In this document: positions 5,549 through 51,143 of the stretch, one piece after another
Numbering within the stretch: position 1 is the stretch's first letter
Layout of the letters: every line of letters starts with the position of its first letter
Assembly: GCA_035549715.1 (NCBI GenBank)
Contig: DASZQJ010000166.1
Span: forward strand, 11,544-75,543
Direction of reading: 5' to 3'
DNA length: 64,000 bases
Origin: Burkholderiales bacterium
Lineage (GTDB): Bacteria > Pseudomonadota > Gammaproteobacteria > Burkholderiales > JACQAP01
Notes under the pieces: model-generated
Databases searched by the model: none
What the model was told of the DNA's origin: nothing
What the model saw: the letters and a program-made list of their open reading frames with translations, nothing else
Program-made: the position numbers and the translations under genes

Positions 5549-5588
5549 GGCGGTCTGCCTCCGTGTCTGGTTCCGTCGTCGCGCCCGC

Positions 5589-6887
5589 TCAGCGCTTGTC
5601 CATGGGCGGGACGTCGCGCCGCGCAGGGCCGGTGTAGAGCTGGCGCGGCCGGCCGATCTTCTGCTCGGGGTCGCTGATCATCTCGTTCCACTGGGCAATC
5701 CAGCCCACCGTCCGGGCCAGCGCGAAAATGCAGGTGAACATGGACACCGGGATGCCCAGGGCGCGCTGGACGATGCCGGAATAGAAGTCCACGTTCGGGT
5801 ACAGCTTGCGGCTGACGAAGTAGTCGTCTTCCAGGGCGACCTTCTCCAGGGCCATCGCCAGCTTGAACAGCCGGTCGTTCTCCAGTCCCAGCTCGCCCAG
5901 CACTTCGTAGCACGTCTCGCGCATCAGCTTGGCCCGCGGATCGTAGTTCTTGTAGACGCGGTGGCCAAACCCCATGAGCTTCACGCCGGAGTTCTTGTCC
6001 TTGGCCTTCTTGACGAATTCGCCGATCTTGGAGACGTCGCCGATCTCCTCGAGCATGTTGAGCGCGGCCTCGTTGGCGCCGCCGTGCGCCGGACCCCACA
6101 GGCAGGCGATGCCGGCCGCGACGCAGGCGAACGGGTTTGCGCCCGAGGAGCCGGCCAGACGCACCGTGGACGTGGAGGCGTTCTGCTCATGGTCCGCATG
6201 CAGGATGAAGATGCGGTCCAGCGCGCGCACCAGCACTTCGTTGACCTTGTATTCCTCGGCGGGCACCGCGAACATCATGCGCATGAAGTTCCCGGTGTAG
6301 GAGAGCGAATTCAGCGGATAGACGAAGGGCTGGCCGATCGAATACTTGTAGGCCATCGCCGTGATCGTCGGCATCTTGGCGATCAGCCGGAACGCCGAAA
6401 TCTGCCTGTGCGCCGGATTATTCAGGTCGAGGGAGTCGTGGTAGAAGGCCGACAGCGCGCCCACCGTGCCGACCATCACCGCCATGGGATGCGCATCGCG
6501 GCGGAAGCCGCGGAAAAAGTTGTTGAGCTGGTCGTGGACCATCGTGTGCCGGGTCACGATGTTCACGAATTCCGCCCTCTGGGATGCGTTCGGCAGCTCG
6601 CCGTTGATCAGCAGGTAGCAGACTTCCAGGAAGTCGCAGTGCCGGGCGAGCTGCTCGATAGGATAGCCGCGGTACAGCAGCACGCCTTCGTCGCCGTCGA
6701 TGTAGGTGATGGCGGACCGGCAGCTGGCGGTGGAGAGGAAGCCGGGGTCGTAGGTGAACTTGCCGGTCTTGCCGAGCAGGGTGCGGATGTCGACCACGTC
6801 GGGGCCGATGGTGCCCCCGAGGACGGGAAATTCGACGGGAGCGGTGCTGTCGCCGAAGGAGATTGTTGCGCTGCGCTTATCGGTCAT
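5589..6887 (-). CDS. gltA: citrate synthase (type II)
   Basis: 432-aa ORF with citrate synthase signatures ([28 protein letters not shown]). Confidence 0.95.
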
Positions 6888-6976
6888 GTTCTCGCTCGCT
6901 CCAGTTGCACATGAAGGGCTTAAGTCTATCAGCTTGTTATGAATATGAGGACCGGAAGTGGCGCTGCAATACCCTC

Positions 6977-7204
6977 CTAATCGAATAATTTGATTAAATT
7001 CTGGATTCGGGGCTCTTGCGCAGACACCTTTCCACTCAGCAAGTCCCAGAGGTCGTTGTCAGGTAGGTCCAGGAGCGCTTTGAAAACAGCCTTTTGCTCC
7101 AGATCCAGTCCGCCGTAGTGTTTATCCAGAAATTTTGACAAAACGATATCCAGCTCCAGCATCCCCCGCCGGCAATGCCAACGGACGCGATCCTCGTCGC
7201 GCAT
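6977..7204 (-). CDS. sdhE: FAD assembly factor SdhE (succinate dehydrogenase assembly factor 2)
   Basis: 75-aa ORF with the RGxxE motif (CRRGMLELD) and DLWDLL, placed immediately after sdhB. Confidence 0.8.
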
Positions 7205-7211
7205 GGGCCGG

Positions 7212-7907
7212 CTAGACGGCGCGCTTGACCATCAGGTCCTTGATCTTGCCGATGGCGCGCGTGGGATTGAGGCCCTTGGGGCAGACATCCACGCAATTCA
7301 TGATCGAGTGGCAGCGGAACAGGCGGTACGGGTCCTCCAGGTTGTCGAGCCGTTCCGAGGTGGCCTGGTCGCGGGTATCGGCAAGAAACCGGTAGGCCTG
7401 AAGCAGGCCGGCCGGGCCGACGAACTTGTCCGGGTTCCACCAGAACGAGGGGCAGGCCGTCGAGCAACAGGCGCAAAGGATGCACTCGTACAGGCCGTCG
7501 AGCTCGGCGCGCTCGGCGGGGGTTTGCAGCCTTTCCTTTTCCGGAACCGGTTCGTTGTTGACGAGGTACGGCTTCACCGAATGGTATTGCTTGAAGAACT
7601 GGGTCATGTCCACGATCAGGTCGCGGATCACCGGCAGGCCGGGCAGCGGGCGCAGCGTAACCGGTTCCTTCAGGCCGGCCAGGGGGGTGACGCAGGCCAG
7701 TCCGTTCTTGCCGTTGATGTTCATCGCATCCGAGCCGCATACCCCTTCCCGGCAGGAGCGGCGCAGCGAAAGCGAATCGTCCGCCGCCTTGATGCGCACC
7801 AGGGCATCGAGCAGCATCCGGTCCGAGGGCTGCAGCTCGATGTCATAGTCCTGCATGCGCGGCTGGCTGTCCTTTTCCGGATCGTAGCGGTAGATGCTGA
7901 ATTTCAT
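7212..7907 (-). CDS. sdhB: succinate dehydrogenase iron-sulfur subunit
   Basis: 231-aa ORF with three Cys clusters (CREGVCGSDAMNING, CILCACCSTACP, CHSIMNCVDVCPKGL). Confidence 0.95.
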   Translation of the reverse strand: MKFSIYRYDPEKDSQPRMQDYDIELQPSDRMLLDALVRIKAADDSLSLRRSCREGVCGSDAMNINGKNGLACVTPLAGLKEPVTLRPLPGLPVIRDLIVDMTQFFKQYHSVKPYLVNNEPVPEKERLQTPAERAELDGLYECILCACCSTACPSFWWNPDKFVGPAGLLQAYRFLADTRDQATSERLDNLEDPYRLFRCHSIMNCVDVCPKGLNPTRAIGKIKDLMVKRAV

Positions 7908-7918
7908 CGGGGGCCCGT

Positions 7919-9703
7919 TCAGTAGGTTCGTTTCTTGGGTTCGAAGGATTCGGCCGTCAGGGGCTTCAGGTGCACGGGCTTGTAGTCCAGCCGGCTGTCC
8001 TGCCTGTACCAGAGCGTGTGCTTGAGCCAGTCCTGGTCGTTGCGCCCGTTGGGATGCTGGGGGGTGTCGCCAAAGTCGGCCCGGTCGTGCGCGCCCCGGC
8101 TTTCCTTGCGTGCCTCGGCGGAGACGAGGGTCGCCACGGCGACCTCGATCAGGTTCTCCAGCTCCAGGGCCTCGACGCGCGCCGTATTGAACACCTTGCT
8201 CTTGTCCTGGATCATCGTGCGCTTCACGCGCTCGGCGGTCTCCTTGATCTTCTTCACGCCCTCCACCAGCATGTCCGGGAAGCGGAACACGCCGCAGTGC
8301 GCCTGCATGATCCGGCGCATCTCGGCGCCGGTCTCGTACACGCTTTCCCCGTTTGTCTGGCTGTCCAGGCGCGCCAGGCGCGCGAGCGTCATGTCAGCGG
8401 CATCCCTGGGCAGGTCCTTGTGGCCGGGGTTTTCCCTGAGGAAACGGATGGTCGTATCGCCCGACGCCTTGCCGAACACGAGCAGGTCGGTAAGCGAATT
8501 GGTGCCGAGGCGGTTGGCCCCGTGCACGGAAGCGCACGCGCATTCGCCGGCAGCGTAAAAGCCCGGCACGACCGACTCCGGGTTGCCGTCCTTGGGCACC
8601 ACCACCTCGCCGCGGTAGTTCGTGGGAATGCCGCCCATCTGGTAATGGCAGGTCGGCACCACCGGGATCGGATCCTTCACCGGGTCGACGTTCGCGAATT
8701 TCCTGGCGATCTCGCGGATGCCGGGGAGGCGCTTTTCGACCACTTCCACGCCCAGGTGGTCAAGCTTGAGCAGGATGTAGTCGCCGTCGGGACCGGCGCC
8801 GCGGCCTTCCTTGATCTCTGTGGCCATGGCCCGTGACACCACGTCGCGGGATGCCAGGTCCTTCATGGTCGGCGCATAGCGTTCCATGAACCGCTCGCCG
8901 TTCTTGTTGAGCAGGTAGCCCCCCTCCCCTCGCACGCCCTCGGTGATGAGCACGCCCGCGCCGGCCACGCCGGTGGGGTGGAACTGCCAGAACTCCATGT
9001 CCTCGAGCGGGATGCCGGCGCGCGCGGCCATGCCCAGGCCGTCGCCGGTGTTGATGAAGGCGTTGGTGCTCGCCGAGAATATGCGCCCCGCACCGCCCGT
9101 GGCGAACAGCACGGCCCGCGCGTGCAGGATCGAAACCTCGCCGGTCTCCATTTCCATCGCGGTCACGCCCAGCACCTGGCCGGAAGCGTCGCGGACCAGG
9201 TCGAGGGCCATCCATTCCACGAAGAACTGGGTGTTGGCCCGGACGTTGCGCTGGTAGAGCGTGTGCAGCATCGCATGCCCGGTCCGGTCGGCCGCGCAGC
9301 AGCTGCGCTGCACCGGGCGCTCGCCGAAGTTCTGCGAATGGCCCCCGAACGGCCGCTGGTAGACGGTGCCGTTGTCGTTGCGGTCAAAGGGCATGCCGTA
9401 ATGCTCCAGCTCGAGCACGACCTTGGGCGCCTCGCGGCACAGGAACTCGATCGCATCCTGGTCGCCAAGGTAATCGGAGCCCTTGACCGTGTCGTACATG
9501 TGCCAGAGCCAGCTGTCCTCGCCCATGTTGCCGAGCGCGGCGCCGATGCCGCCCTGCGCCGCCACCGTGTGGGATCGCGTCGGGAACACCTTGGAAAGCA
9601 CCGCCACCCTGAATCCGGCCTCGGCCAGTTGCAACGAGGCGCGCATGCCCGCACCGCCGGCGCCCACGATCACTGCATCGAATTTTCTTACGGGGATGGC
9701 CAT
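7919..9703 (-). CDS. sdhA: succinate dehydrogenase flavoprotein subunit
   Basis: The ORF-track frame is 7919..9745. I placed the start at the internal ATG 9703 ([22 protein letters not shown]), which sits just before the FAD dinucleotide-binding motif. The rest is typical SdhA ([15 protein letters not shown]). Confidence 0.95.
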
Positions 9704-28941: not shown

Positions 28942-28965
28942 CGTTATATCCAGTTGTATATTTCG
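28942..28965. promoter_or_regulatory. ModE-type operator (Mo-box) A
   Basis: CGTTATAT-ccagttgt-ATATTTCG matches 15/16 positions of CGnTATAT-N8-ATATAnCG. It overlaps a promoter-like TTGTTG(28933)/TATATT(28957) pair upstream of the TonB-dependent receptor gene. Confidence 0.6.
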
Positions 28966-28971
28966 ATATGT

Positions 28972-28995
28972 CGTTATGCATATCACGATACAACG
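28972..28995. promoter_or_regulatory. ModE-type operator (Mo-box) B, degenerate
   Basis: CGTTATGC-atatcacg-ATACAACG matches 13/16 positions. It lies 26 nt upstream of ATG 29021. Its right arm is identical to that of the box in front of modB. Confidence 0.4.
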
Positions 28996-29020: not shown

Positions 29021-31042
29021 ATGATTACCAGAACCCTGGCCTGTCTGGCCCTGGCAGCCGCAACCGGAACCGGCACGGCTGCCGCCGATTCCAACGTGTT
29101 CACCCTCGGCGACATCGAGGTCACGGCCAAGCGCATCAAGGAGGAAGGCACCGGCGTCCAGACCGTCACGCAGGAGAACATCGAGGACCACAATCGGGAA
29201 ACGGTCAGCCGCGCCCTCACCATGGAGTCCGGGGTAACCATCGCCAACGTCGGCCCGCGCAACGAATCCACCGTCTACGTGCGTGGCTACGACCTGAGGC
29301 AGGTCCCCGTCTACGTCGACGGCATCCCGATCTACGTCCCCTACGATGGTTATGTGGACCTCGGTCGATTCAATACCTTCGACCTGTCTCAGATCGAGAT
29401 CTCCAAGGGCTTTACCTCCGTACTGAACGGGCCCAACGCTTTCGGCGGCGCAATCAACCTCCTCTCCCGCCGGCCCTCGAAAGCCTTCGAAGGCGACGTC
29501 GGCGCGGGCGTCTTCATGAACGATGACTTCGGAGACAACGGCTACCGGGCGTATGCCAACCTGGGCACCAACCAGGGTGGCTGGTATGCCCAGATCGGTG
29601 CCTCCTACCTCGACAAGCGCCAGTATTCGCTCTCCGACGAGTTCGAAGGTGCGTCCTTCATTCCCGGCGGCGCGGGTCGCGCCGCCCAACCGCCGGGCGA
29701 ACGCCTCAACAGCTATAACTCGGACCAAAAGGTCAATGTCAAGCTCGGCCTCACGCCGAATGCCACGGACGAATACGCGCTCAACCTGATCGCCCAGCGG
29801 GGAGAGAAGGGCGTTCCCTCCTATGCCGGCAACTTCAATGCCTCGGGGCCGACAGGGCCGCGCTATTGGCAGTGGCCCTATTGGGACAAGACCAGCGCCT
29901 ATTTCCTGTCCCAGACGGCGATCGGTGACGTGTCCTACGTCAAGACCCGGGTCTACTACGACCAGTTTGAAAACTCCCTCAACCAGTACACCGACGCCAC
30001 TTATGCCACGTTGCGTACCGGCGGCAGCAGGCCCAGTTTCTACGACGACTACACGTACGGGGCGAGCATCGAAGCAGGGACCCGGTTCATCCCCACGAAC
30101 GAGTTCAAGGTCGCGGCGCATTACAAGGACGACGTGCATCGTGAGCACTTGGAGAACGGTCCGACCCAGAATTTCGAGGACCAGATCTACTCGATCGGCA
30201 TCGAGGACAGCCAGCGCTTCGGCGAGCGCCTCACAATCGTGGCCGGGGCGAGCTACGACGCCTCGGAAACCAGGGAGGCCCAGAACCTCGTTGGCGGCAA
30301 TCTGGTGCCCTTTGAGATGGGCAGCTCCGATGCCTTCAATCCCCAGATCGGGGCGTTCTACAAAACCGGTGATACAGGCATCGCACGCGTCACGGTCAGC
30401 CGGAAATCGCGCTTCCCCACCATCAAGGATCGCTACTCCTACCGCCTGGGAACGGCGTTGCCGAATCCGGACCTGGAACCCGAACGCGTCACCCATTACG
30501 AAGTGGGCTACGCCGATTCCGGGCGCGAGCACGCGAGCTACAACGTGTCGGCATTCCATGACGAGATCCGTGACCTGATCCAGCTCGTGGACAATGCGAT
30601 TTCCCCGGGAGTCGGCCAGAACCGCAACATCGGCAAGGCCCGATATCGCGGTTTCGAGCTGGGCGGGGCAGTCTATCCAACGAGCAACGTCGAGCTTGGC
30701 GGCAGCTACACCTACCTCGACCGCGACAACATTTCGACGCCGAACATCCGGCTCACTGATGTGCCCATGCACAAGGTGTTCGCCTATGCGCAGTGGCGTT
30801 TCCTCGAGAAGTTCCGCTTCATCGGGTCCGGGGAGTACAACTCCGACCGCTACAGCTCGACCAACGGCCAGCGCATCGCCAGCGAGTTTGGCGTGTTCAA
30901 TGCCAAGCTCGCCTGGGATGTCGAGGCGGCGTTCACGGTCGAGTTCGGCGTGAACAACCTGCTCGACCGCAACTACGAGTACATCGAGGGCTTTCCCGAG
31001 GAAGGCCGCAATTACTTCGCCAACATGCTTTACAAGTTCTAG
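29021..31042 (+). CDS. TonB-dependent outer-membrane receptor
   Basis: ORF 28976..31042. I prefer ATG 29021 (MITRTLACLALAAATGTGTAAA signal peptide, GGGGGA RBS). Plug-domain sequences are present (VTAKR...TVSRAL...VYVRGYDLRQVPVYVDGIPIY), along with a long beta-barrel and a C-terminal ...NMLYKF. Confidence 0.9.
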   Translation: MITRTLACLALAAATGTGTAAADSNVFTLGDIEVTAKRIKEEGTGVQTVTQENIEDHNRETVSRALTMESGVTIANVGPRNESTVYVRGYDLRQVPVYVDGIPIYVPYDGYVDLGRFNTFDLSQIEISKGFTSVLNGPNAFGGAINLLSRRPSKAFEGDVGAGVFMNDDFGDNGYRAYANLGTNQGGWYAQIGASYLDKRQYSLSDEFEGASFIPGGAGRAAQPPGERLNSYNSDQKVNVKLGLTPNATDEYALNLIAQRGEKGVPSYAGNFNASGPTGPRYWQWPYWDKTSAYFLSQTAIGDVSYVKTRVYYDQFENSLNQYTDATYATLRTGGSRPSFYDDYTYGASIEAGTRFIPTNEFKVAAHYKDDVHREHLENGPTQNFEDQIYSIGIEDSQRFGERLTIVAGASYDASETREAQNLVGGNLVPFEMGSSDAFNPQIGAFYKTGDTGIARVTVSRKSRFPTIKDRYSYRLGTALPNPDLEPERVTHYEVGYADSGREHASYNVSAFHDEIRDLIQLVDNAISPGVGQNRNIGKARYRGFELGGAVYPTSNVELGGSYTYLDRDNISTPNIRLTDVPMHKVFAYAQWRFLEKFRFIGSGEYNSDRYSSTNGQRIASEFGVFNAKLAWDVEAAFTVEFGVNNLLDRNYEYIEGFPEEGRNYFANMLYKF

Positions 31043-31051
31043 GAGTCTCCC

Positions 31052-32362
31052 ATGCGCGTTGCCGGACACCTGAAGGCGCTGCTCGCCCTGCTGCTGGCCG
31101 GCGCCGCATCGGCCGGGATGGCGGAGGGCAGGGTCGTCGTCCTCACGAGCTACCCGCAGGAAACCATCTCCCTGTTCGAGGCAGCCTTCGAAAAGGCCAA
31201 TCCCGGCACGCGCCTGGAGATCGTCTGGCGCATGCCTCGGGATGCCATGCCCTATCTGCTCGACGCGGGCAGCCACGGCGTGGATGTCTACTGGTCCGCC
31301 TCGGCCAGGAACTACGCGGAGCTCGCCGCGAAGGACCTGCTCGCCCCGCTTGCCGCCGATCCCGCATTGCCCGAGCGCATCGGCCGCTTCCCGATCTCCG
31401 ATCCGGGGCTGCGCTACCGCGCCTCCGAAATCGCCAGCTACGGCTTCGCCTGCAACGAGTCGAAGCTGCGCGCCGACCGCCTCACCTGCCCGGCGACCTG
31501 GGCCGACCTGGCCAAGCCGGGCTACGCGGGTCGCATCCTGCTCCCGGTGCCTTCCAAGGTGGGCTTTGCCCCGCTGATGTACGAAATCCTGCTGCAGAAG
31601 CTGGGCTGGGAAGCCGGATGGAAGGTCATCGCCGAGGCGGCCGCCAATTCGGTGCTGTTCGTCCCGGGCGGGGCCTTCATCACCGACCGCATCGGCGCCG
31701 GCGAGGAGGATGTGGGCGTGACCATCGACTTTTTCGCCAAGTCGGCCATTGCCAACGGCGCGCCCATGACGTTCGTCTATCCCGACGTAATCGGGTTCTC
31801 GCCGGCGCACGTCGCCATCCTCGCGAGCGCGCCCCATCCCGACGAGGCCCACAGGTACGTCGAGTTCCTGCTGTCCGAGGAAGGCCAGCGCATCCTGGCC
31901 CATCCCGACATCCGCAAGCTGCCGGTCCGGCCGTCCGCTTATGCCGCCGTCGACGCCGGCGGGCTCAATCCCTTCGATCCCGCCCGCAGCGCCGCCTTCG
32001 ACTACGACATGGCCGCGGCCCAGAAGCGCCAGGCGCTGGTCAATGCGCTGTTCGACGCGATGGTGAGCGACAGGCACGCCGGGCTGCGTGAGCTGTCGCA
32101 GGCGATCCAGCAGGCCGAGGCACTGGCACAGCAGCGCGGCGACGCGAACCTGGCGTCCGCCGCGGGCAGGGCGCGATCCGCCATGAGCTGGGTGCCGGTA
32201 TCCGCCATGGAATCCATCGCTCCTGACCTGCAAAAGAACGCGGGCGAACGGGCCGTCGCCTGGGGCCGCGAGATCGATGCCCGACGCGAGGGCGCGCTCG
32301 CGGAACTGCGCCCATTGCTTTCCCGCACCGATCCGCCGGCGCTCGCTCAAGCTCGGCGATGA
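31052..32362 (+). CDS. orphan periplasmic solute-binding protein (Fe3+/thiamine-type PBP fold) with helical C-terminal extension
   Basis: 436-aa ORF with a signal peptide. The N-terminal 320 aa or so resemble AfuA/FbpA-type binding proteins (VVVLTSYPQETISLFEAAFEKANPGTRLEIV...VDVYWSAS). The last 110 aa or so are Ala/Arg-rich and helical. The gene starts 9 nt after the receptor stop with an AGGAG RBS. No permease or ATPase genes are nearby. Confidence 0.75.
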   Translation: MRVAGHLKALLALLLAGAASAGMAEGRVVVLTSYPQETISLFEAAFEKANPGTRLEIVWRMPRDAMPYLLDAGSHGVDVYWSASARNYAELAAKDLLAPLAADPALPERIGRFPISDPGLRYRASEIASYGFACNESKLRADRLTCPATWADLAKPGYAGRILLPVPSKVGFAPLMYEILLQKLGWEAGWKVIAEAAANSVLFVPGGAFITDRIGAGEEDVGVTIDFFAKSAIANGAPMTFVYPDVIGFSPAHVAILASAPHPDEAHRYVEFLLSEEGQRILAHPDIRKLPVRPSAYAAVDAGGLNPFDPARSAAFDYDMAAAQKRQALVNALFDAMVSDRHAGLRELSQAIQQAEALAQQRGDANLASAAGRARSAMSWVPVSAMESIAPDLQKNAGERAVAWGREIDARREGALAELRPLLSRTDPPALAQARR

Positions 32363-42165: not shown

Positions 42166-42921
42166 TCACGGCTTGAGGAAGCCGTACTTCTGCAGGATCT
42201 GCGACCCCGCCGTCGCACGCACGAATGCCACGAAGGCCGCGGCGGCCGCCGCCTGGCTGCTGTCCTGGATGACCGCGATCGGGTACAGCACGGGGCTGGC
42301 CGTGGGGACCTCGAGGGCCACCTTCACCTTTTCCGGCATCAGGGCGGCGTCCGTGCGATAGACAAACGCGGCGTCGACTTCACCGCGCGCAACGTAGTCC
42401 AGGCTCTGCCGGACGTTCTGCGTGTTGATGACCTTGTCCTTCACGGGCTCCCACAAACCCTGCTCCATGAGCACCGATCTGCTGTAGCGCCCGACCGGCA
42501 CGCTGTCCGGATTGCCGATGGCCACCCTGCGGAACCTGTCCCCGGTGAGCTCGGCCAGGCTCCCGATCCCGGGACTCTCGCCGCCCGGGATGACGAGCAC
42601 GAGTACATTGCGAGCGAAATCGGCCCGGGAACCGGGTCGCAGCAGGCCCTGCTGCTGCGCGCGGTCCATCGTTTCCTGGTCGGCGGCAGCGAACACGTCC
42701 ACCGGTGCGCCCCTGGCGATCTGCTGCAGGAGCTGCCCCGAGCCGCCAAAGTTGAATGCCACTTTCGTGCCGGGATGGGCGCGCTCGAATTCACGTCCGA
42801 TGTCGGTGAATGCGTTGGTCAGGCTGGCCGCGGCGGAAACCACCAGATCCGCCGCCGCGGCGCCGGCCCACGCCTGCATGGCCACGACCAGGAAGACCCA
42901 CCTTGTCACTGCATTGCGCAT
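42166..42921 (-). CDS. modA: molybdate ABC transporter substrate-binding protein
   Basis: 251-aa ORF with a signal peptide and the ModA pattern (LVVSAAASLTNAF, FNFGGSGQLLQQI, VPVGRY). Confidence 0.9.
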   Translation of the reverse strand: MRNAVTRWVFLVVAMQAWAGAAAADLVVSAAASLTNAFTDIGREFERAHPGTKVAFNFGGSGQLLQQIARGAPVDVFAAADQETMDRAQQQGLLRPGSRADFARNVLVLVIPGGESPGIGSLAELTGDRFRRVAIGNPDSVPVGRYSRSVLMEQGLWEPVKDKVINTQNVRQSLDYVARGEVDAAFVYRTDAALMPEKVKVALEVPTASPVLYPIAVIQDSSQAAAAAAFVAFVRATAGSQILQKYGFLKP

Positions 42922-42963
42922 TGCCGTGCTCCTTGTCTCGGGTCCGGACGCATGGCCGGCACG

Positions 42964-44676
42964 TCAGAACCGGAAGCGGAAACCGGTACCCGCCGTGAAG
43001 ATGTCGTGGATGTAGACCGCCGTCGGCGTGGAGTCGAATGCCGGCCCCTTGTAGTGCGTGAAGATCAGCCCGCCGTACAGGGTGGTCCCCTTGTACAGCC
43101 GGTACGTGGCGAGGCCGGACCAGCCATCGATGGACCCACCCTTGTATCGGGTGGGATAAACCCCGCCCACCGGCGTGCCGGAGCCGTAGGACGGCAATCC
43201 GACGTAGACATAGCCCACGCTCAGGTTGGTCTTCTCCGTTAGGTCGTAGTCGAAGCCCAGGTGCCCGGTGTACAGCTCGGTATCTTCGCCGACGTACGCC
43301 GTGGACTTGTTCACGTCCTCGCCGTAAAGGTTGTTGATGAAGGGAATGTTGGGATCCGGCGTCGGCTCGCTCAGCACGGCGTACTGGCCGCCGAACTGGG
43401 TATGCAGCGCGTCGGTCAGCTTGTACTTGAACACCAGCAGCGCGGCCCGCTGGTCGTAGGCGACCAGGTTGATGACGTTGTTCACCGCGGCATCGGTGCC
43501 CGTCTTCAGCAGGTCGGAAAACTCCTCGTAGACCGCCTGCACGCCGAAGCGATCGGTCTCGTAGCCGATGTTGGCCGCAAAGCCCTGGGCCCCCTTCTTC
43601 AGGCCCCCGGTGCCGCCGAATCCGTACAGCAAGCCGAAATTGACGTTGCCGACCTTGTGCCTGTACTTGATGCTGCTGTCGACGCGGGCATTCTCCGACA
43701 GCGACCCGCCGCCACCGTATACGCCGTTGCCATAGGGCGAGAACAATCCTGATTTCTGGTTCGGCGCGTAGCCGTTGAGCACGTCGAGGATGAAGTTGGT
43801 GTTGCGGCCGAACGAGATCCGGCCCCAGTCGTCGCCGGAGAAGCCGCCGATGGCTTCCTTGGCGAATAGCTGGCCGTTGAGCGAACTCGTCGCATAGGCC
43901 GTGGTCGGGTACCTGGAGTTCACGGCCTGGTTGTGCGACTGGTCGGTGAGCTGGCCGGTGGCCGGGTTGAAGGCCGAATCGAGCAGCGCGAACACCTTCA
44001 GGCCGCCCGCCCCGATGTCCCGGCTGGCCCGGATGCCCCAGGACGAGGTCGACAGCGCGCTGTTGAACATTCCCGTCTGGCTCGACATGTTGGACGCGGG
44101 ATAGGGCACCTGGCTGCCCCCGGGGCCGGTCGGCGTGGTGCGCGGGTATCGCACGCCTCCGGAAATCCAGGGGCCGATGGACGTGGGCATCTCGCCGCTC
44201 TGGACCAGGGAATGGCTGGTATAGCCCACCGCGAGATCGATGGTGCCGAACAGTTCGACCTTGGTCCGGTCGGTGCTGATGATGGCCACGCCGTCCTCCT
44301 GCTTTCCGGCGGCCGCACCGGCGGGCGCCCCAGGGGACGCCGCGGACGCTTCCGGCGAGGGGTTCGAAGCCTTCGCCGCCGCAGCCGGCGCCTGTGCCGG
44401 TTCGGGGCCGGACGGCGCCACGGGTGCGGCAACCGGCGCCGGGCCTGCTGTGGCGCCCGGCGATTGCTTCGCTTCTGCGGCATCCGTCGTTGCCGACATG
44501 AACTCGTCGTACTCCTCCTGGGTGATGATGCCCTTCTTCAGCTGCAGGTCCAGCAGGCGCTTGATGGCATCCTCGGCCGTTCCCGCAAACGTCGTCGTGC
44601 AGGCCACGCCGAGCGCCGCCGCCATCGCAAGCTTCCCGAGTCTGCCTCCCCAGCCTTTCGTTGCAGCTGCATTCAT
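42964..44676 (-). CDS. Gram-negative porin with SHOCT-like N-terminal segment and Ala/Pro-rich linker
   Basis: ORF 42964..44721; ATG 44676 has an AAGGGA RBS. After the signal peptide comes AEDAIKRLLDLQLKKGIITQEEYDEFM, then about 90 aa of A/P/S-rich linker. The barrel then starts typically (VELFGTIDLAVGYTSH) and ends ...TAGTGFRFRF. Confidence 0.8.
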   Translation of the reverse strand: MNAAATKGWGGRLGKLAMAAALGVACTTTFAGTAEDAIKRLLDLQLKKGIITQEEYDEFMSATTDAAEAKQSPGATAGPAPVAAPVAPSGPEPAQAPAAAAKASNPSPEASAASPGAPAGAAAGKQEDGVAIISTDRTKVELFGTIDLAVGYTSHSLVQSGEMPTSIGPWISGGVRYPRTTPTGPGGSQVPYPASNMSSQTGMFNSALSTSSWGIRASRDIGAGGLKVFALLDSAFNPATGQLTDQSHNQAVNSRYPTTAYATSSLNGQLFAKEAIGGFSGDDWGRISFGRNTNFILDVLNGYAPNQKSGLFSPYGNGVYGGGGSLSENARVDSSIKYRHKVGNVNFGLLYGFGGTGGLKKGAQGFAANIGYETDRFGVQAVYEEFSDLLKTGTDAAVNNVINLVAYDQRAALLVFKYKLTDALHTQFGGQYAVLSEPTPDPNIPFINNLYGEDVNKSTAYVGEDTELYTGHLGFDYDLTEKTNLSVGYVYVGLPSYGSGTPVGGVYPTRYKGGSIDGWSGLATYRLYKGTTLYGGLIFTHYKGPAFDSTPTAVYIHDIFTAGTGFRFRF

Positions 44677-44689: not shown

Positions 44690-44713
44690 CGTGATGTTCT
44701 TGTAGATACAACG
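44690..44713. promoter_or_regulatory. degenerate ModE-type box C (modC-porin intergenic)
   Basis: CGTGATGT-tcttgtag-ATACAACG matches 13/16 positions. Its right arm is identical to those of boxes B and D. Confidence 0.3.
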
Positions 44714-44728: not shown

Positions 44729-45538
44729 TCACTTCACCAGCTGCATGGGCGCCCGCGCGCGCGCCGCGCCAATCTCCCGGTGGGCGTCCGTGAGCAGGCC
44801 GCGGATCGCCTCCTGGCGCGCCCGCCCCTGCTCGTCGCGATACGGCAGCCCCTTCAGGTCCGTGACGCGCTCCACCCTGCCGTGCTCCAGGATCACCAAT
44901 GTCTGGGCGAGCGCCGAGACGTCCTCGGGATCATGGGTGATCACCAGCATGGGTACCTTGAAGGCTTCGCGCGTGCGCAGCAGCTCGTCGCGCATCCGGT
45001 CCCTGAGCAGGGGATCGAGCGCGGCGAAAGGCTCGTCGAGCAGCAGCACTGCCGGCCGGCGGATCAGCGCGCGCGCCAGCGCCACCCGCTGCTTCTGCCC
45101 CCCCGAGAGCTGCCAGGGCCGCGCCCCGCCCAACCCGCGCAGCTCGAACACTTCCATGAGCTCGTCGACGCGCCGCAGGAGTTCGGCGGAATGCCTTCGC
45201 TGCCACCAGTGGCGCACTCCGAAGCCGATGTTCTGCGCCACGGTGAGGTGGGGGAACAGCGCATAGTCCTGGAACAGGTAGGCGACCCCGCGCTCGCGCG
45301 CCGGGACGTCGACGCCGGTCGAGGAGTCGAACAGCACCCGCCCCGCCACGGCGATGCGACCGCGCTCGGGCGTCTCCAGTCCGGCAATGGCCTTCAGGGT
45401 GACGCTCTTGCCGGCGCCGGAGGGGCCGAAGATCACGCCGCGTTCGTCGTCGCACGTGAACCTCACGTCGAGCGGGAACTCGCGCCCGCTCGAGCGCAGC
45501 GTCTTGTGGATGTCGACCTCGATGTGCACCGGGTTCAT
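44729..45538 (-). CDS. modC: molybdate ABC transporter ATP-binding protein (short form, no TOBE domain)
   Basis: The last 269 aa of ORF 44729..46279 start at ATG 45538. Walker A (GPSGAGKS), the signature (LSGGQKQR) and Walker B (LLLDEP) are present. The ATG overlaps the modB stop. The C-terminal 45 aa or so are too short for a TOBE/Mop domain. Confidence 0.85.
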   Translation of the reverse strand: MNPVHIEVDIHKTLRSSGREFPLDVRFTCDDERGVIFGPSGAGKSVTLKAIAGLETPERGRIAVAGRVLFDSSTGVDVPARERGVAYLFQDYALFPHLTVAQNIGFGVRHWWQRRHSAELLRRVDELMEVFELRGLGGARPWQLSGGQKQRVALARALIRRPAVLLLDEPFAALDPLLRDRMRDELLRTREAFKVPMLVITHDPEDVSALAQTLVILEHGRVERVTDLKGLPYRDEQGRARQEAIRGLLTDAHREIGAARARAPMQLVK

Positions 45539-46209
45539 CCTTGTGCGGCCGGCCGCAACAGCCGTCCCGAAGCGAGCAGCACTGCGATGCAGACGGCGGA
45601 GGTCACGATGACCAGGAAATTGGCGACATCGTCCCGCCCCGCCTGGACGGCCTCGTAGACGGCGATGGACAGCGTCTGTGTCTTTCCCGGCAGGCTTCCC
45701 GCCACCATGAGGGTCGCGCCGAATTCGCCCATTGCGCGCGCGAAGGCGAGCATCATGCCCGCCAGGATGCCGCGCCAGGCAAGCGGCAGCGTCACCTGGA
45801 GGAACACGGCGGTTTCCGATTTGCCCAGGATGCGGGCGGCCTGCTCGTACTGCCGCTCCACGCCTTCGAACGCCGCGCGCGCCGCTTTGTAGACGAGGGG
45901 AAAAGCCACGACGGCCGCGGCGATGGCCGCGCCCTGCCAGGTAAACACGAGCGAGATGCCGAAGGTCGACTCCAGCCAGGCGCCGATCGGGCCCCGCCGG
46001 CCGACCAGGACCAGAAGGTAGTAGCCCAGCACGGTGGGGGGCATCACCATTGGCAGGGTCATCATGGCGTCCAGGACTTCCCGGCCGGGAAAACGCAGGC
46101 GCGCCAGGGCGAAGGCCACCAGCACGCCCGCCACGGTGGCGCCGAAGGTGGCCCAGCCCGCGACTTTCAGGGTGAGCAGGAGGGGAACGAGGACTTCCTG
46201 GGACGACAC
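45535..46209 (-). CDS. modB: molybdate ABC transporter permease
   Basis: ORF 45535..46263. I prefer GTG 46209 because the ORF-track ATG 46263 would place the ModE box at 46223-46246 inside the gene. The EAA-type loop is ARILGKSETAVFLQVTLPLA. Confidence 0.85.
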   Translation of the reverse strand: MSSQEVLVPLLLTLKVAGWATFGATVAGVLVAFALARLRFPGREVLDAMMTLPMVMPPTVLGYYLLVLVGRRGPIGAWLESTFGISLVFTWQGAAIAAAVVAFPLVYKAARAAFEGVERQYEQAARILGKSETAVFLQVTLPLAWRGILAGMMLAFARAMGEFGATLMVAGSLPGKTQTLSIAVYEAVQAGRDDVANFLVIVTSAVCIAVLLASGRLLRPAAQG

Positions 46210-46222: not shown

Positions 46223-46246
46223 CGATGTATACGAATTGATACAACG
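46223..46246. promoter_or_regulatory. ModE-type operator (Mo-box) D in front of modB
   Basis: CGATGTAT-acgaattg-ATACAACG matches 14/16 positions, and both mismatches are the symmetric TAYAT variant. It lies just downstream of a minus-strand TTGACG-N17-TAGCCT promoter-like pair and 14 nt upstream of GTG 46209. Confidence 0.6.
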
Positions 46247-46372: not shown

Positions 46373-47041
46373 TCAGGCGGGGAAAACCGCCGCCACCGGC
46401 CGGACCGGCTCCGGCATCCCCCTGCCCTCGCGGAGTTCGGCTTCGCGCCGGACCTGGGCCCGCTTGAGCGCCAGCAGGTTCTTGCAGATGCGCACGTTGC
46501 CCTCGATCAGGCCACGGGAGGGATCGATGCGGGTCATTCCGTACTTCTGCGGCCCCTGCCCGCGCTGCGCCCACTTGCCCGAGCGGCGCCAGGCTTGCAC
46601 CCACTGCGACAGGGTCAGCGACCAGGCGATGTCCTTGCGCTTGGCATTGGTCCGGTGCTGCAGATAGACCCGACGCTCCTCGTCGGTCGCTTCCCGGAAT
46701 TCGAGCAGCGTGCAGCCATAGACGCGCTCCCAAGCCGGCTTGACCTTGCGGGGACGGCCCGCCGACTGCCGGCGCACCGCCAGCCCGGCATTGGTCTTGT
46801 CCAGGCCATAGCGGCGGGCGATCTTGCGCACCCCTTCCACGCTGAGGCTCAGCGATTCGCCGATTGAAGTCAGCGTTTCGCCGGAGAGGTATCGGCTGCA
46901 GATGGCGGCGTCTCGCGACCCCGCCTCCGGCAGCCCGGCGGCGACCGGAGTCGCCGGGGCGAACCGCCCCCGGCCACCCTGGGCCGTCTCGAAAGCCGGC
47001 ATTGCGTCCGGCGGCAATTCCGCCGCCCGGTCGCTCCTCAT
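46373..47041 (-). CDS. hypothetical protein with HTH segment and degenerate HNH-like C-terminal region
   Basis: 222-aa ORF whose ATG overlaps the stop of the upstream beta-propeller gene (ATGA). The HTH-like stretch is ICSRYLSGETLTSIGESLSLSVEGVRKIARRYGL. The C-terminal YGMTRIDPSRGLIEGNVRIC resembles the DRID..GY..GNV motif of His-Me finger proteins but lacks the Cys/His ligands. Confidence 0.55.
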   Translation of the reverse strand: MRSDRAAELPPDAMPAFETAQGGRGRFAPATPVAAGLPEAGSRDAAICSRYLSGETLTSIGESLSLSVEGVRKIARRYGLDKTNAGLAVRRQSAGRPRKVKPAWERVYGCTLLEFREATDEERRVYLQHRTNAKRKDIAWSLTLSQWVQAWRRSGKWAQRGQGPQKYGMTRIDPSRGLIEGNVRICKNLLALKRAQVRREAELREGRGMPEPVRPVAAVFPA

Positions 47042-48213
47042 GGCTTGTCGAAGCCCTTCGGCAGGTGCACCACCGTGACGGTGTTGTCCTTGTAGTTGGG
47101 CGACGTGGCCGCCAGCTCGGGGATCACCAGCAGGTAACTGCCGTCACCTTGCTTGCGCACCGCAACGTCGGCCGGGCCGGCCAGCTTGATGTCCTGGTCG
47201 TACGTCAGCGTGTAGGCCTTGCCGGCGGCCGTGGTCACGATCACCGAATTGGTGTTCTTGATCTCGGTATCGATGCGCACATTGCCCGCGAAGTCCAGGC
47301 CGTCGAGCGCGCCGAAGCCCTTGCCGAACGGCGCCGGCAACTTGCCGTTTTCGATGTCCGCCTTCGTGACCTTGTACTGGCCGCCTTCCGCCGGGTCCTT
47401 CATGCCGGCCGCCACGCCCACGGTGTTGAAGTGGATCATGCCGTCCGGGCCGACTTCGATGCCGTCCGGGCCGCCATCCGGCACGGCCAGGTACGAGACT
47501 CTGGCATCCTTGCCTTCGGCGAGGTCGTCGATCGCGTTCTTCGGGAACAGGTAGATGCCGCCGCCCTTGGTGGCGATCGGTGGATCGAACGTGCCGCCGG
47601 CAACACCCGTGTCGGCGAGGTACAAATTACCCGCCTTGTCGAAGGCCAGCGCGTTGGAAAGCGTCGCGGGCACGCCAGCGGCCTTGTAGGCGGCGGAACC
47701 TTCGCCCAGCTTGATCTCGCCCAGCACGTAGCCATCCTCGTTGAAGGCCAGGATCTTAGGATCGTGGTCGGCCTTGTCCTTGACCGGGGCGCCGTCGGGG
47801 TTGGCGCCCGGGGCGTCGGCCAGCGCGACAAAGATCGTGCCCTTGGGGAAGCGCTTGGTCGCCGTGTGGCTCACGGCCATGCCCAAAGGGCCGGTGAGAC
47901 CGATGACCAGCTTCTCGTTGACCATCTTCAGCGTGCCGTCGGATTGCACTTCGAGCTTGCTGATGTAGCCCGACTTGTGGGTCCAGTTGAAGCCGATGTT
48001 GGGGTTCCCCAGCTCGGCGGAATTGGTGATGAAGACGTGCTTGCCGTCGGCGCTGAAGATCGCGCCTTCCGGATTGTCGAAAACGCTGAGTCGCTGGATG
48101 ACTTGTCCCTTGACCGGGTAGTCTGGGCTTTGGGCCATGGCAGTGGTCACCCCGGCTGCCATCAGCAGCGCGCCGAGCAAGGTCAGTGCCGGGACGCGGG
48201 AAGTTCTGGTCAT
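47038..48213 (-). CDS. secreted beta-propeller protein (SMP-30/gluconolactonase/NHL-like)
   Basis: 391-aa ORF with a signal peptide (MTRTSRVPALTLLGALLMAAGVTTAMA). Blade-like motifs repeat (AIFSADGKHVFITN, GMAVSH, ALAFDKAGNLYLADTG, PDGIEVGPDGMIHF). A GAGGAG RBS is present and a perfect ModE box lies 48 nt upstream. Confidence 0.75.
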   Translation of the reverse strand: MTRTSRVPALTLLGALLMAAGVTTAMAQSPDYPVKGQVIQRLSVFDNPEGAIFSADGKHVFITNSAELGNPNIGFNWTHKSGYISKLEVQSDGTLKMVNEKLVIGLTGPLGMAVSHTATKRFPKGTIFVALADAPGANPDGAPVKDKADHDPKILAFNEDGYVLGEIKLGEGSAAYKAAGVPATLSNALAFDKAGNLYLADTGVAGGTFDPPIATKGGGIYLFPKNAIDDLAEGKDARVSYLAVPDGGPDGIEVGPDGMIHFNTVGVAAGMKDPAEGGQYKVTKADIENGKLPAPFGKGFGALDGLDFAGNVRIDTEIKNTNSVIVTTAAGKAYTLTYDQDIKLAGPADVAVRKQGDGSYLLVIPELAATSPNYKDNTVTVVHLPKGFDKP

Positions 48214-48260
48214 TTCGTTGGTCTCCTCGTTGTTTTTTGCTTTGGGGGATGCGATCGATT

Positions 48261-48284
48261 CGTTATATTTCTATGGATATAACG
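48261..48284. promoter_or_regulatory. ModE-type operator (Mo-box) E, perfect
   Basis: CGTTATAT-ttctatgg-ATATAACG matches 16/16 positions and is a perfect palindrome. It lies upstream of the beta-propeller gene. Confidence 0.75.
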
Positions 48285-48347
48285 AAACACGTCCAGTTTG
48301 AAATACGGTCAGCTTCCATTCCGTGGCCTGGCCTGTGATTCGGGGGG

Positions 48348-48377
48348 AAAAATGAGCGGTGCCCGCGAAGGCACCGC
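48348..48377 (-). terminator. intrinsic terminator (minus strand)
   Basis: On the minus strand the sequence reads GCGGUGCC-UUCGCG-GGCACCGC (8-bp GC stem, 48377..48356) followed by UCAUUUUU (48355..48348). Confidence 0.55.
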
Positions 48378-48443
48378 CCCAAGCTCGAAAGGAGGATCGC
48401 GTCGCGGGCTGGGCTCGTTACACCGGTGCTCGCGGCATTCTCC

Positions 48444-48477
48444 GCCGTCGCTATATTCTCTTGGATATAGCGACGGC
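48444..48477. promoter_or_regulatory. ModE-type operator (Mo-box) F, perfect with extended 13-bp arms
   Basis: GCCGTCGCTATAT-tctcttgg-ATATAGCGACGGC. The core CGCTATAT-N8-ATATAGCG matches 16/16 positions. It lies 85 nt downstream of the modE stop and is overlapped by a minus-strand TTGACG (48482..48477). Confidence 0.75.
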
Positions 48478-48561: not shown

Positions 48562-48936
48562 CTAGCGGGGCTCGACCATCAGGTCAGCGAAATCCTCGAG
48601 TTCGCGCGCCACGCTGGCGGTGGCCTTGGCTTCCATGCGCTGGTAACGCGCCAGGATTTCCTTGCCGAACTCGGTCACCCGAGCCCCGCCCCCGCGGCTG
48701 CCGCCGGTGGCGGTCTCGACCAGGGGCGTGCGGAAACACTGGTTCATGGTGTCGACGAGCAGCCAGGCCCGCCGGTACGACATGTCCATCTGGCGGGCCG
48801 CGGCGGAGATGGAGCCGGTCGATTCGATGGCTTTGAGGAGGTCGGCCTTGCCCGGCCCCATGGCGATGGCCTTGCGAAACATGATCCGGATCTGCGGCCG
48901 CGGGCGTGACGAGGATTTTGGCTTCGCCGCCGCCAT
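48562..48936 (-). CDS. modE: ModE-family regulator, DNA-binding domain only (no Mop/TOBE domains)
   Basis: ATG 48936 lies 2 nt after the moaE stop and gives 124 aa. GKADLLKAIESTGSISAAARQMDMSYRRAWLLVDTMNQCFRTPLVETATGGSRGGGARVTEFGKEIL aligns closely with my recollection of the E. coli ModE N-domain (SLLKHIALSGSISQGAKDAGISYKSAWDAINEMNQ...ATGGKGGGGAVLTRYG). Confidence 0.8.
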   Translation of the reverse strand: MAAAKPKSSSRPRPQIRIMFRKAIAMGPGKADLLKAIESTGSISAAARQMDMSYRRAWLLVDTMNQCFRTPLVETATGGSRGGGARVTEFGKEILARYQRMEAKATASVARELEDFADLMVEPR

Positions 48937-50289: not shown

Positions 50290-50640
50290 ATGAAACGACT
50301 CGTTGCAATCGTCGCCGGCGCCGCCGCGCTGTGCGCCCTCCCGGCTGCCGCCCACCACGGCTGGAGCAGCTACGAGAACGACAAGCCGCTCACCGTGACC
50401 GGCACCATCGTGCAGTCCGAGTACAGCTACCCGCACGCGACGATCCGGCTCGAGGCCGATGGCAAGACCTGGCTGGCGGTGCTGGCACCTCCCTCGCGCA
50501 TGTCCGCCCGCGGGCTCTCCAGCGCCGATCTCAAGGCCGGCGTCCAGGCGACGGTCGAAGGCTACCCGAGCCGCAACGACGCGGCTGAACTGCGCGCGGA
50601 GCGGATCATCATCGGCGGAAAACCCACCGAGCTGCGCTGA
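50290..50640 (+). CDS. small exported protein with predicted mature N-terminus His-His (DUF6152-like, from memory)
   Basis: 116-aa ORF. After the signal peptide MKRLVAIVAGAAALCALPAAA comes HHGWSSYENDKPLTVTGTIVQSEYSYPHATIRL. Confidence 0.55.
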   Translation: MKRLVAIVAGAAALCALPAAAHHGWSSYENDKPLTVTGTIVQSEYSYPHATIRLEADGKTWLAVLAPPSRMSARGLSSADLKAGVQATVEGYPSRNDAAELRAERIIIGGKPTELR

Positions 50641-51143
50641 TGTCCCCCGCCGGCACCCCTCCCGGCGGCCAGCTGCTGCAGGCACTGGAGCACGGCGGCA
50701 TCGGCGAGGCGATGCGCAATTCCATCTGGCTCTACCCGGCGGTGGAGACCCTGCACATCGTCGGTTTCATCCTGCTGGTGGGCGCAGTGCTCATGTTCGA
50801 CCTGCGGGTGCTGGGCCTGTCTCGGCGCGTACCGGTGCGCATGCTCGCCGGGCACCTGCTGCCCTGGGGAGCGGCGGCGCTGGTGCTGATCGTGCCGGCG
50901 GGGCTGCTGCTGTTCGCGGCCGATGCCACCGCGATGGTCGGGAACCGGGCGTTCGTCCTCAAGATGATCCTGCTCATGGCCGCGGCCACCAACGCCGCAG
51001 CCTTCCACCTCGGGCCATTCCGCTCGGTCACCGCCTGGGATCAGGGCATCACCGCCCCGCTCTCGGCCCGACTGCATGCCGGCGCCTCGCTGGTGCTCTG
51101 GCTGGCGATCATCGCTTGCGGTCGCATGATCGCCTACGCCTGA
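50640..51143 (+). CDS. four-helix integral membrane protein, unknown function
   Basis: 167-aa ORF whose ATG overlaps the stop of the preceding gene. Four hydrophobic helices are present (e.g. HIVGFILLVGAVLMF, AAALVLIVPAGLLLF). Confidence 0.55.
   Translation: MSPAGTPPGGQLLQALEHGGIGEAMRNSIWLYPAVETLHIVGFILLVGAVLMFDLRVLGLSRRVPVRMLAGHLLPWGAAALVLIVPAGLLLFAADATAMVGNRAFVLKMILLMAAATNAAAFHLGPFRSVTAWDQGITAPLSARLHAGASLVLWLAIIACGRMIAYA

Follow-up and report, generated by a model that had tools for sequence, protein, structure and literature searches.

A perfect ModE-type operator heads a beta-propeller/helix-turn-helix gene pair within a molybdenum island of a Burkholderiales bacterium

The 64,000-nt stretch of contig DASZQJ010000166.1 from a Burkholderiales bacterium (hereafter the window) carries on its minus strand two adjacent genes preceded by a perfect operator of the ModE type, Mo-box 1. 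The first gene encodes a 391-aa exported beta-propeller and the second a 222-aa cytoplasmic protein with a helix-turn-helix (HTH) stretch. Both products are deposited at NCBI as 'hypothetical protein' of a Burkholderiales metagenome-assembled genome (MAG). The G+C content at the third codon position (0.88 and 0.87, respectively) is that of real genes in a window with 66.7% G+C. The stop of the propeller gene overlaps the start of the 222-aa gene in the sequence ...AAGCC-ATGA-GGAGC, as a preliminary description of this DNA had already stated. The gene order on the minus strand is mobB, moaD, moaE, modE, Mo-box 2, Mo-box 1, propeller gene, 222-aa gene, Mo-box 3, modB, modC, Mo-box 4, porin gene and modA. 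Four tandem units headed by Mo-boxes (a small RNA, the propeller–HTH pair, modBC and porin-modA) are thus arranged downstream of mobB-moaDE-modE (Table 1). The pairing of a secreted enzyme-like protein with a phage-like DNA-binding protein had been called odd in itself; the two proteins are of these kinds, but the pair is not isolated and forms an accessory unit of a mod locus, placed between modE and modBC.

Table 1. Features of the molybdenum island, listed in the order of the minus strand (positions in the window)
Feature	Position	Strand	Description
mobB	50291-49710	-	
modE-type regulator	48562..48936	-	124 aa, N-terminal domain only; last gene of mobB-moaD-moaE-modE
Mo-box 2	48449..48472	.	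CGCTATAT-N8-ATATAGCG, 2 mismatches
RNA of ~105 nt (candidate)	48345..48451	-	Variable 5' stem-loop, single-stranded linker, intrinsic terminator with U-run
P1, putative sigma-70 promoter	48268..48295	-	TGGACG (48295-48290), 16-nt spacer, TAGAAA (48273-48268); read from sequence
Mo-box 1	48261..48284	.	CGTTATAT-N8-ATATAACG, perfect ModE-type operator before the propeller gene
Propeller gene	47038..48213	-	HWA14548.1, 391 aa, Sec-exported six-bladed beta-propeller; signal peptide residues 1-27
222-aa gene	46373..47041	-	HWA14547.1, cytoplasmic; disordered N-terminus, sigma-4-like HTH (~43-93), phage-type helical + beta-beta-alpha domain (~103-204)
Mo-box 3	46223..46246	.	3 mismatches; 13 nt before the likely GTG start of modB (46209)
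modB + modC	44729..46209	-	modB 46209-45535, modC 45538-44729; TIGR02141 235 bits; ABC_tran
Mo-box 4	44690..44713	.	3 mismatches; before the porin gene
OprP-type porin + modA	42166..44676	-	Porin 44676-42964, modA 42921-42166; modA TIGR01256 E 7e-58

The window was searched with the inverted-repeat pattern CGnTATAT-N8-ATATAnCG, and CGTTATATTTCTATGGATATAACG at the position of Mo-box 1 matched it with 0 mismatches. On the coding strand the box reads CGTTATATCCATAGAAATATAACG, i.e. CGTTATAT-CCATAGAA-ATATAACG. With up to 3 mismatches allowed, 7 Mo-box-like sites were found in the window, compared with 0.01 in dinucleotide-preserving shuffles; the remaining ones are Mo-boxes 2, 3 and 4 and the sites at 28942-28995. 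The experimentally established modA operator of Escherichia coli K-12 (NC_000913.3, modE-modA intergenic region), CGTTATATTGTCGCCTACATAACG, lies 19 nt before modA and differs from Mo-box 1 at 1 of the 16 arm positions, its second arm being ACATAACG in place of ATATAACG. The architecture is the same in both cases, the operator lies near the start of the regulated gene, a gene of the ModE family of HTH proteins is adjacent and modABC homologues are provided with the same box. The distance between the last base of Mo-box 1 and the A of the ATG codon of the propeller gene (48213) is 48 nt, and the Shine-Dalgarno sequence GAGGAG (48228-48223) precedes this codon. The −10-like element of the putative promoter P1 sits within Mo-box 1; P1 was not reported by a strict consensus promoter scan.

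For the comparison, 58 genomic loci found with a 10-sequence alignment were used, together with loci reached via the 222-aa protein. A search of genome contigs with the single propeller sequence returned no relatives, and a 30-sequence propeller alignment was too diverse for the design of patterns. The full layout of the window (box with RNA, box, propeller gene, HTH gene, box, modBC, box, porin-modA) recurs in L001, L002/L003, L007, L058 and L186, and the JGI contig of P0122 shows the same gene order. In these window-type loci, the boxes have 0-1 mismatches. L186, from which no pattern had been derived, carries four boxes at 0-1 mismatch and the RNA at 69.9 bits, and its upstream neighbour is not modE. 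The box is kept 37-62 nt ahead of the propeller start in L001, L002, L007, L058 and L186, and an alignment of the window-type loci showed Mo-box 1 to be the best-conserved intergenic segment. The perfect palindrome that had been noted 48 nt before the 391-aa gene is an exact match, and its position is conserved across genomes.

A box is situated 30-330 nt upstream of a propeller gene in 17 loci and, in addition, in L186. Boxes with at most 2 mismatches at this distance also precede propeller genes with no HTH partner (L008, L009, L011-L014, L020, L026, L027, L049, L054 and L060); the two boxes of L049, a MAG of the Rhodospirillaceae, are perfect. A DUF2325 gene that heads the propeller operon follows the boxes in L010 and L024. 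The recurrent neighbours are ModE and Mop (a 69-aa TOBE protein), modA, an OprP-type porin, a small Oxidored_molyb-domain protein and a TrmO-like protein. The 69-aa TOBE gene adjoins modA or the propeller gene in L002, L020, L024, L049 and L186. The check for co-occurrence that had been suggested earlier was positive for the box and the propeller gene, and the HTH partner proved to be lineage-specific. Control of the propeller family by ModE-type regulators is well supported by these genomic patterns, and such control of the propeller unit in the window is very probable.

A second type of locus, with the distal box and the RNA but no proximal box before the propeller gene, was recognized in the same set. 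A further Mo-box lies there between two divergent genes (L008 10489-11608, L012 9241-10942, L013 9375-10657), which encode an Oxidored_molyb-domain protein of about 180 aa and a 145-aa protein with no Pfam match. These two genes are candidate members of the ModE regulon.

The N-terminus of the propeller protein (MTRTSRVPALTLLGALLMAAGVTTAMA, with QS following the cleavage site) combines a positively charged n-region with a hydrophobic core and an AXA cleavage site, and contains neither a lipobox Cys nor an RR motif. An AlphaFold2 model built from the 30-sequence alignment reached a predicted local distance difference test score (pLDDT) of 91.2 and a predicted template-modelling score (pTM) of 0.90. 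Residues 1-25 are disordered in it (pLDDT <50), in agreement with a Sec signal peptide, and the remainder is a confident propeller. A periplasmic location of the protein is highly probable. Six blade motifs of the form xGxAxD..G.L can be recognized in the sequence (NPEGAIFS, GPLGMAV, SNALAFDKAGNLY, GPDGIEV, ALDGLDF and GPADVAV). Foldseek comparison of the model with the PDB found six-bladed propellers at probability 1.0, with query-normalised TM-scores of 0.50-0.56 and 12-17% identity, among them Cj1041c, squid diisopropyl fluorophosphatase (DFPase), the NHL domains of TRIM2 and Brat, and lactonases of the SMP-30/gluconolactonase (SGL) type, including RPA3624. A profile search of PDB sequences gave single-blade matches (NHL-type Pizza/PknD, a YVTN S-layer protein, gluconolactonases, YncE), and the Pizza/PknD match covered one query blade (163-200). 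The blade motif xPNGxAxDxxGNLYVxD is of the NHL type. The assignment of the protein to secreted propellers of the SMP-30/gluconolactonase/NHL type, suggested previously from the blade motifs, agrees with both the signal peptide and this fold class.

None of the Pfam and NCBIfam families, including PF08450 (SGL), PF01731 (Arylesterase) and NHL, matched the propeller at E <= 0.01, and a PHROG scan gave no match. Neither this protein nor its 222-aa partner belongs to a characterised enzyme family of Pfam or NCBIfam. The propeller homologues number more than 442 in a 90%-clustered collection, where all are unnamed or bear a generic COG label, and the family has 172 cluster representatives at 50% identity. 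Some homologues are labelled YncE by JGI. The E. coli YncE protein is also a periplasmic beta-propeller in a context regulated by metal starvation. It is, however, seven-bladed and linked to Fur, and is not known to be linked to ModE. The YncE model PF21783 did not match the propeller, and the PDB match to YncE comprised one blade of 35 residues (E 8e-5).

The residues E49, N187, D/N250 and D304, situated just before an inner strand, are each conserved in 25 of 30 diverse members of the family. We take their placement and chemistry to be those of the tunnel Ca2+ ligands (E, N, N/D and D on blades 1, 3, 4 and 5) of DFPase and SMP-30. The propeller would thus share with the Ca2+ propeller hydrolases acidic or amide residues at the corresponding blade positions. 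It differs from these proteins in its low sequence identity and in a longer mature domain (~355 aa) with helical insertions, and the linkage to Mo-boxes is unique to the family described here. Among the proteins of the same fold, Cj1041c of Campylobacter jejuni is a Ca2+-binding protein that, like the propeller, is secreted by a bacterium and has no assigned function (PMC13578688).

The 222-aa protein matched Sigma70_r4 (PF04545) at residues 47-77 with an E-value of 0.005 and 16.7 bits, which is below the cut-off of 24.1. Several of its homologues carry a precomputed PF04545 assignment, and a profile search of PDB sequences found RpoD at an E-value of about 1e-3. The AlphaFold2 model (pLDDT 76) consists of a disordered N-terminus, a three-helix HTH and a helical domain ending in a beta-beta-alpha element, so that the HTH-like stretch postulated beforehand was recovered. 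The RIDPSRGLIEGNVRIC segment forms this terminal element (strands 167-171 and 183-186, helix 189-204). The C-terminal motif had also been considered reminiscent of His-Me finger nucleases lacking their metal ligands. The beta-beta-alpha topology of the segment from RID to GNVRI is indeed shared with His-Me finger (HNH) nucleases, but the protein has none of their catalytic residues: GMTRIDPSRGLIEGNVRIC lacks His, there are no Cys or His metal ligands, and no Pfam HNH family was matched. The resemblance itself is statistically weak, with PHROG matches to HNH/endonuclease families at E of about 0.02 (and weak ones to the small terminase) and no significant match in a PDB fold search of the model (PacI, E 1.4).

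Clearer relationships were found with phage proteins. The C-terminal half matched phrog_16521 in the window protein (E 5.2e-9) and in the homologues P0131 (3.3e-11) and P0133 (9.2e-7). Matches of the model in BFVD were uncharacterised Caudovirales proteins at about 1e-4 and one HNH-domain protein. A single-sequence search retrieved 13 homologues and a profile search 46 clusters, most of them apparently on contigs with propeller homologues. Their alignment contains 28 invariant columns, including those of the HTH (GETLxSIGxxxxLSxEGVRKI) and W/R/G-rich motifs up to GNVRI. The distant members P0133, P0313 and P0314 are encoded in early regions of phages, directly after genes for a cI-like repressor and a P22-Cro-like protein and before genes for a DUF1376 protein, helicase and primase, which is the position of cII. 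The window protein is homologous to these cII-position proteins over its whole length, with a sigma-4/LuxR-like N-terminal HTH and the same C-terminal domain, and its ancestry is that of a phage protein. In contrast to them, its gene is chromosomal, has no phage neighbours and is fixed between the propeller gene and modB behind a Mo-box promoter.

In relatives, the HTH gene is followed by a third conserved gene encoding 96-131 aa, with 62-82% identity between loci and no Pfam match (L001 10739-11131, L002 10838-11128, L186 9732-10127). This gene (C10) is not present in the window, where only ~160 nt separate the HTH gene and modB.

Mo-box 2 is located 165 nt further upstream than Mo-box 1 and is overlapped by the promoter TTGACG (48482-48477), 16-nt spacer, GAGAAT (48460-48455). 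The TTGAC −35 element is invariant in 12 of 12 aligned loci, and the −10 element lies within the box. The predicted RNA downstream of it comprises a loop AACGAG (48419-48414), the single-stranded CCUCCUUUCGAG (48395-48384) with the invariant core CnUUCGAG, and a strong terminator (48379-48354) that begins 75 nt after Mo-box 2. In the intergenic alignment of the window-type loci the RNA segment is more conserved than its flanks. The same module stands before the propeller gene in L008, L011-L014, L026 and L060, with CCUCCUUUCGAG or CCCCUUCGAG as the linker. A covariance model built from 12 copies scored these at 64-99 bits and found nothing else in 816 kb of loci. It detected further copies directly upstream of propeller genes in L139 and L113 and a weak one before porin-modA in L105. 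A metagenome pattern scan (GAATATAGCG-N38-68-CYTTCGAG) returned mostly chance matches, and the covariance model confirmed 3 of the 80 loci returned. In the six window-type RNAs, 91% of the cells pair, compared with 43-45% with slid partners; double-sided changes occur in 11 of 30 pairs, and the covariation score is 0.52 versus 0.11-0.18. Covariation is thus supportive of the predicted structure, within six related sequences only.

No window match was found in Rfam 15 at the gathering score, including the Moco (molybdenum cofactor) riboswitch; at E <= 10 there were only sub-threshold terminator-like matches, and no similarity of the RNA to the Moco RNA motif was seen. Searches of a paper library found neither a ModE-controlled small RNA (sRNA) nor a ModE-regulated propeller. 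An antisense small open reading frame (AAGGAGG followed by a start codon in some loci) was rejected, because no start codon occurs there in L007, L012 and L013 and because it is the sense strand that carries the promoter and the U-run. The RNA is built like a trans-acting sRNA with an anti-Shine-Dalgarno seed and is a candidate ModE-controlled sRNA or leader. It resembles RyhB and PrrF under Fur in a promoter overlapped by the operator of a metal-responsive repressor, a length of ~100 nt, a C/U-rich single-stranded seed, an intrinsic terminator and a location at a metal-homeostasis locus. The candidate sRNA differs from them in the ModE-type regulator and in the metal, molybdenum. Perfectly complementary target sites of 10-12 nt were absent from the window and the loci, except for the antisense strand of the element itself.

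The element might instead act in cis, as a leader or attenuator within the mRNA of the propeller gene, an alternative that we regard as tentative and somewhat below an even chance. It is found in 15 loci and adjoins the propeller gene upstream on the same strand in 14 of them, and second-type loci offer no other route of transcription into that gene. The C-rich linker (48384-48395) and the 5' base of the terminator (48370-48379) are complementary, which would allow an antiterminator. This complementarity was seen at the same positions in L007, L011 and L014, and the bases change together between locus types (CCCCC/GGGGG, CCUC/GAGG, CCCUU/AAGGG). The pairing could reflect a weak antiterminator or an effect of terminator composition. 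The alternative helix is, however, only 4-5 bp long against 11-12 bp of the terminator. The 5' stem-loop varies in sequence and the single-stranded linker is invariant, which is the pattern of an sRNA seed and not that of a ligand-binding aptamer. Moreover, the window-type loci possess a separate box and promoter after the terminator.

As regards the direction of control, the propeller unit is expected to be repressed in molybdenum-replete cells because the box covers the arrangement TGGACG-16-TAGAAA and the same type of box heads modBC. It is quite improbable that the boxes activate transcription in response to molybdenum, like those of moaA or dmsA in E. coli, or that Mo-box 1 is redundant and the propeller mRNA comes mainly from transcripts that start at the Mo-box 2 promoter and read through the terminator of the RNA. 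This possibility draws on L008, L011-L014, L026, L060 and L139, where only the distal box, the RNA and the terminator precede the propeller gene; no promoter was detected in the 70-100 nt between terminator and propeller gene in the second-type loci, so read-through must feed the gene there. On the other hand, Mo-box 1 stands out among the intergenic segments of the window-type loci by its conservation, −10-like hexamers lie inside both Mo-box 1 and Mo-box 2, and porin-modA is headed by the same box type as modBC. To our knowledge, units of the modBC and porin-modA type are repressed by molybdenum-bound ModE in every system studied.

The gene for the local ModE-type regulator lies 280 nt upstream of the Mo-box 1 region and appears to be translationally coupled to moaE. 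The protein matched TIGR00637 (E 7e-26, 90.1 bits, cut-off 98.5) and PF00126 (28.5 bits, cut-off 26.6). The locus differs from the ModE system of E. coli in its four tandem operators, which include the RNA, propeller and porin units that E. coli does not have. At the sites corresponding to Mo-box 3, the relatives carry perfect or 1-mismatch boxes. The porin encoded between modC and modA, with a Mo-box-like site of its own, is of the OprP/Porin_O_P type (its L002 homologue matches Porin_O_P), and every window-type locus retains this arrangement. Selectivity of the porin for molybdate is conceivable. On the other side of the island are moaA, moeA and a DUF6152/DUF6644 gene pair. The latter (50290-51143, plus strand) is flanked by mobB and moaA, in L001, L002, L003 and L058 as well as in the window, and may be linked to molybdenum metabolism.

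Elsewhere in the window, three overlapping Mo-box-like sites (28942-28995) are situated 26-79 nt upstream of a gene for a TonB-dependent receptor (likely start 29021, plus strand), followed by a gene for a solute-binding protein (31052-32362, plus strand; the pair spans 29021-32362). In L010, two perfect Mo-boxes stand before a homologous receptor/solute-binding pair (1421-4722). These sequences suggest a molybdenum-regulated TonB-dependent uptake, and uptake of complexed molybdenum is plausible because Mo-boxes accompany the receptor pair and are perfect in L010.

Taken together, the findings can be best explained if Mo-box 1 serves as operator for a promoter that is repressed by ModE and transcribes a translationally coupled propeller–HTH bicistron, the second of four units in a molybdenum-starvation island, with the propeller as an accessory of the system and the 222-aa protein recruited from a phage. 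We assign this explanation as a whole a probability of about 0.6. When molybdate is sufficient, a ModE-type dimer would occupy the boxes, cover the −10 element and spacer or the region of the transcription start, and block transcription. When molybdate is scarce, the RNA, propeller–HTH, modBC and porin-modA units would be expressed together. The propeller would be exported by Sec to the periplasm and probably acts there as a Ca2+-dependent hydrolase or binding protein accessory to molybdenum or tungsten acquisition; it might release the oxyanion from a complexed form or bind that form. The chances of a direct role of the propeller in such acquisition are, in our view, a little less than even. 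The 222-aa product would stay in the cytoplasm, as a DNA-binding protein that one Burkholderiales sublineage took over from the early region of a phage. The earlier proposals that the propeller might process or bind an extracellular molybdenum or tungsten species or a metallophore, and that the HTH protein might be a second-tier regulator, are conjectural.

Several findings weigh against this explanation, either as a whole or in its parts. The source organism is an uncultured MAG. The local ModE-type regulator, at 124 aa, consists of the N-terminal domain and, unlike ModE of E. coli, has no molybdate-binding Mop domains; a Mop/TOBE gene was sought across the 64-kb window and none was found. 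Mo-boxes 3 and 4 are degenerate in the window, with 3 mismatches each. For the propeller, no Pfam, NCBIfam or PDB sequence match provides a function, and the putative metal ligands were assigned by blade position alone. An hhalign profile comparison with a manually entered SMP30 sequence aligned one blade only, and the metal site is put forward as a hypothesis.

The distribution of the propeller genes adds to these reservations. About ten betaproteobacterial copies have no Mo-box, and the same is true of nearly all copies in Alphaproteobacteria, Entotheonella, NC10, Rokubacteria and Deltaproteobacteria. Several MAGs contain a molybdenum-linked propeller and an unlinked paralogue in the same genome, and linked and unlinked copies interleave in a neighbour-joining tree. 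In L051, L052 and L059 (about 5100-9200; NC10 and deltaproteobacterial MAGs), the propeller gene directly follows genes for a ferredoxin (4Fe-4S, with a twin-arginine translocation signal) and aldehyde:ferredoxin oxidoreductase, a tungsten or molybdenum enzyme. In L034 it follows a pyrroloquinoline quinone (PQQ) alcohol dehydrogenase gene (5930-9077, 2-nt gap), and such a gene also adjoins it in L021. These observations give rise to the main competing explanation, in which the protein works as a general hydrolase of the periplasm, for instance a lactonase or esterase in the oxidation of alcohols, aldehydes or sugars. The molybdenum-linked copies would then serve in sparing or as a back-up, induced when the molybdo- or tungsto-enzymes of the periplasm cannot be made, and not in metal acquisition. 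The fold class, made up mainly of lactonases and phosphotriesterases, fits such an enzyme. ModE-repressed, molybdenum-independent isoenzymes are well established in the alternative nitrogenases of Rhodobacter and Azotobacter. In about 20 loci, however, the genes that surround the propeller gene serve transport and sensing (modA, modBC, porin, Mop, ModE) and not catabolism, and no candidate molybdenum enzyme to be replaced is evident. We consider a general hydrolase improbable.

The remaining reservations concern the HTH gene, which is confined to one sublineage and missing from most of the molybdenum-linked propeller loci. Between the window and L002, its non-synonymous substitution rate (dN) is 0.38 compared with 0.09 for the propeller gene, i.e. 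it evolves about four times faster. Because most Mo-box-linked propellers have no HTH partner and others are accompanied by the third gene, the pairing seems to be an evolutionary add-on and not a functional necessity. The gene could even be a remnant of phage origin, decaying or selfish, which landed after the propeller gene and before modB and is passively co-transcribed and devoid of a host function. Its relatives in phage early regions, the PHROG and BFVD matches, the restriction to one sublineage, the fast evolution, the variable termini, the lack of nuclease ligands and the loss of the companion gene C10 from the window are all compatible with such a remnant. We nevertheless consider it unlikely: the position of the gene is kept in at least 7 loci whose propellers have diverged to 67-86% identity, and the locus has no flanking phage genes, integrase or repeats. 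The reading frame is intact, has retained the 28 invariant columns and is translationally coupled in the window. The ratio of dN to the synonymous rate (dS) is 0.16-0.28 for the 222-aa gene and 0.10-0.31 for the propeller gene between orthologous loci; the proportion of non-synonymous differences (pN) in the 222-aa gene is far below that of synonymous ones (pS), dS is saturated, and the L007 HTH-gene and L058 propeller-gene pairs were left out of the calculation. Homologue clusters and purifying selection thus speak for both genes, and the downstream frame, the conservation of which had been in question, is conserved. Our reading of the 222-aa protein is that of a phage DNA-binding protein which appears to have been captured into a molybdenum-regulated unit in one sublineage and kept there by selection. 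That it works as a regulator is possible, though we would not call it probable.

A more far-reaching picture for some Burkholderiales would join a ModE-repressed trans-acting sRNA, with the CCUCCUUUCGAG or CCCCUUCGAG linker as an anti-Shine-Dalgarno seed, which as an analogue of RyhB down-regulates dispensable molybdenum-dependent or other mRNAs, with a periplasmic Ca2+-propeller that together with the molybdenum-regulated porin and TonB receptor obtains molybdate or tungstate from complexes, and with a domesticated phage cII-position protein as a transcriptional layer. All of this together seems doubtful to us.

ModE regulons have usually been described as comprising transport (modABC), cofactor synthesis and a few molybdenum enzymes. 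The operator found here is of the known kind, and the propeller family, the recruited phage protein and the RNA driven from a Mo-box would be undescribed members of such a regulon. The locus adds three parts to a conserved Mo-box island: a widespread uncharacterised periplasmic family, a DNA-binding protein recruited from a phage, and a structured RNA that had not been annotated. A propeller involved in molybdenum or tungsten acquisition would represent a new step between the outer membrane and ModA. We know of no earlier molybdenum-responsive sRNA, and the RNA would be the first if it acts in trans; in that case, molybdenum homeostasis would gain a post-transcriptional layer like that known for iron.

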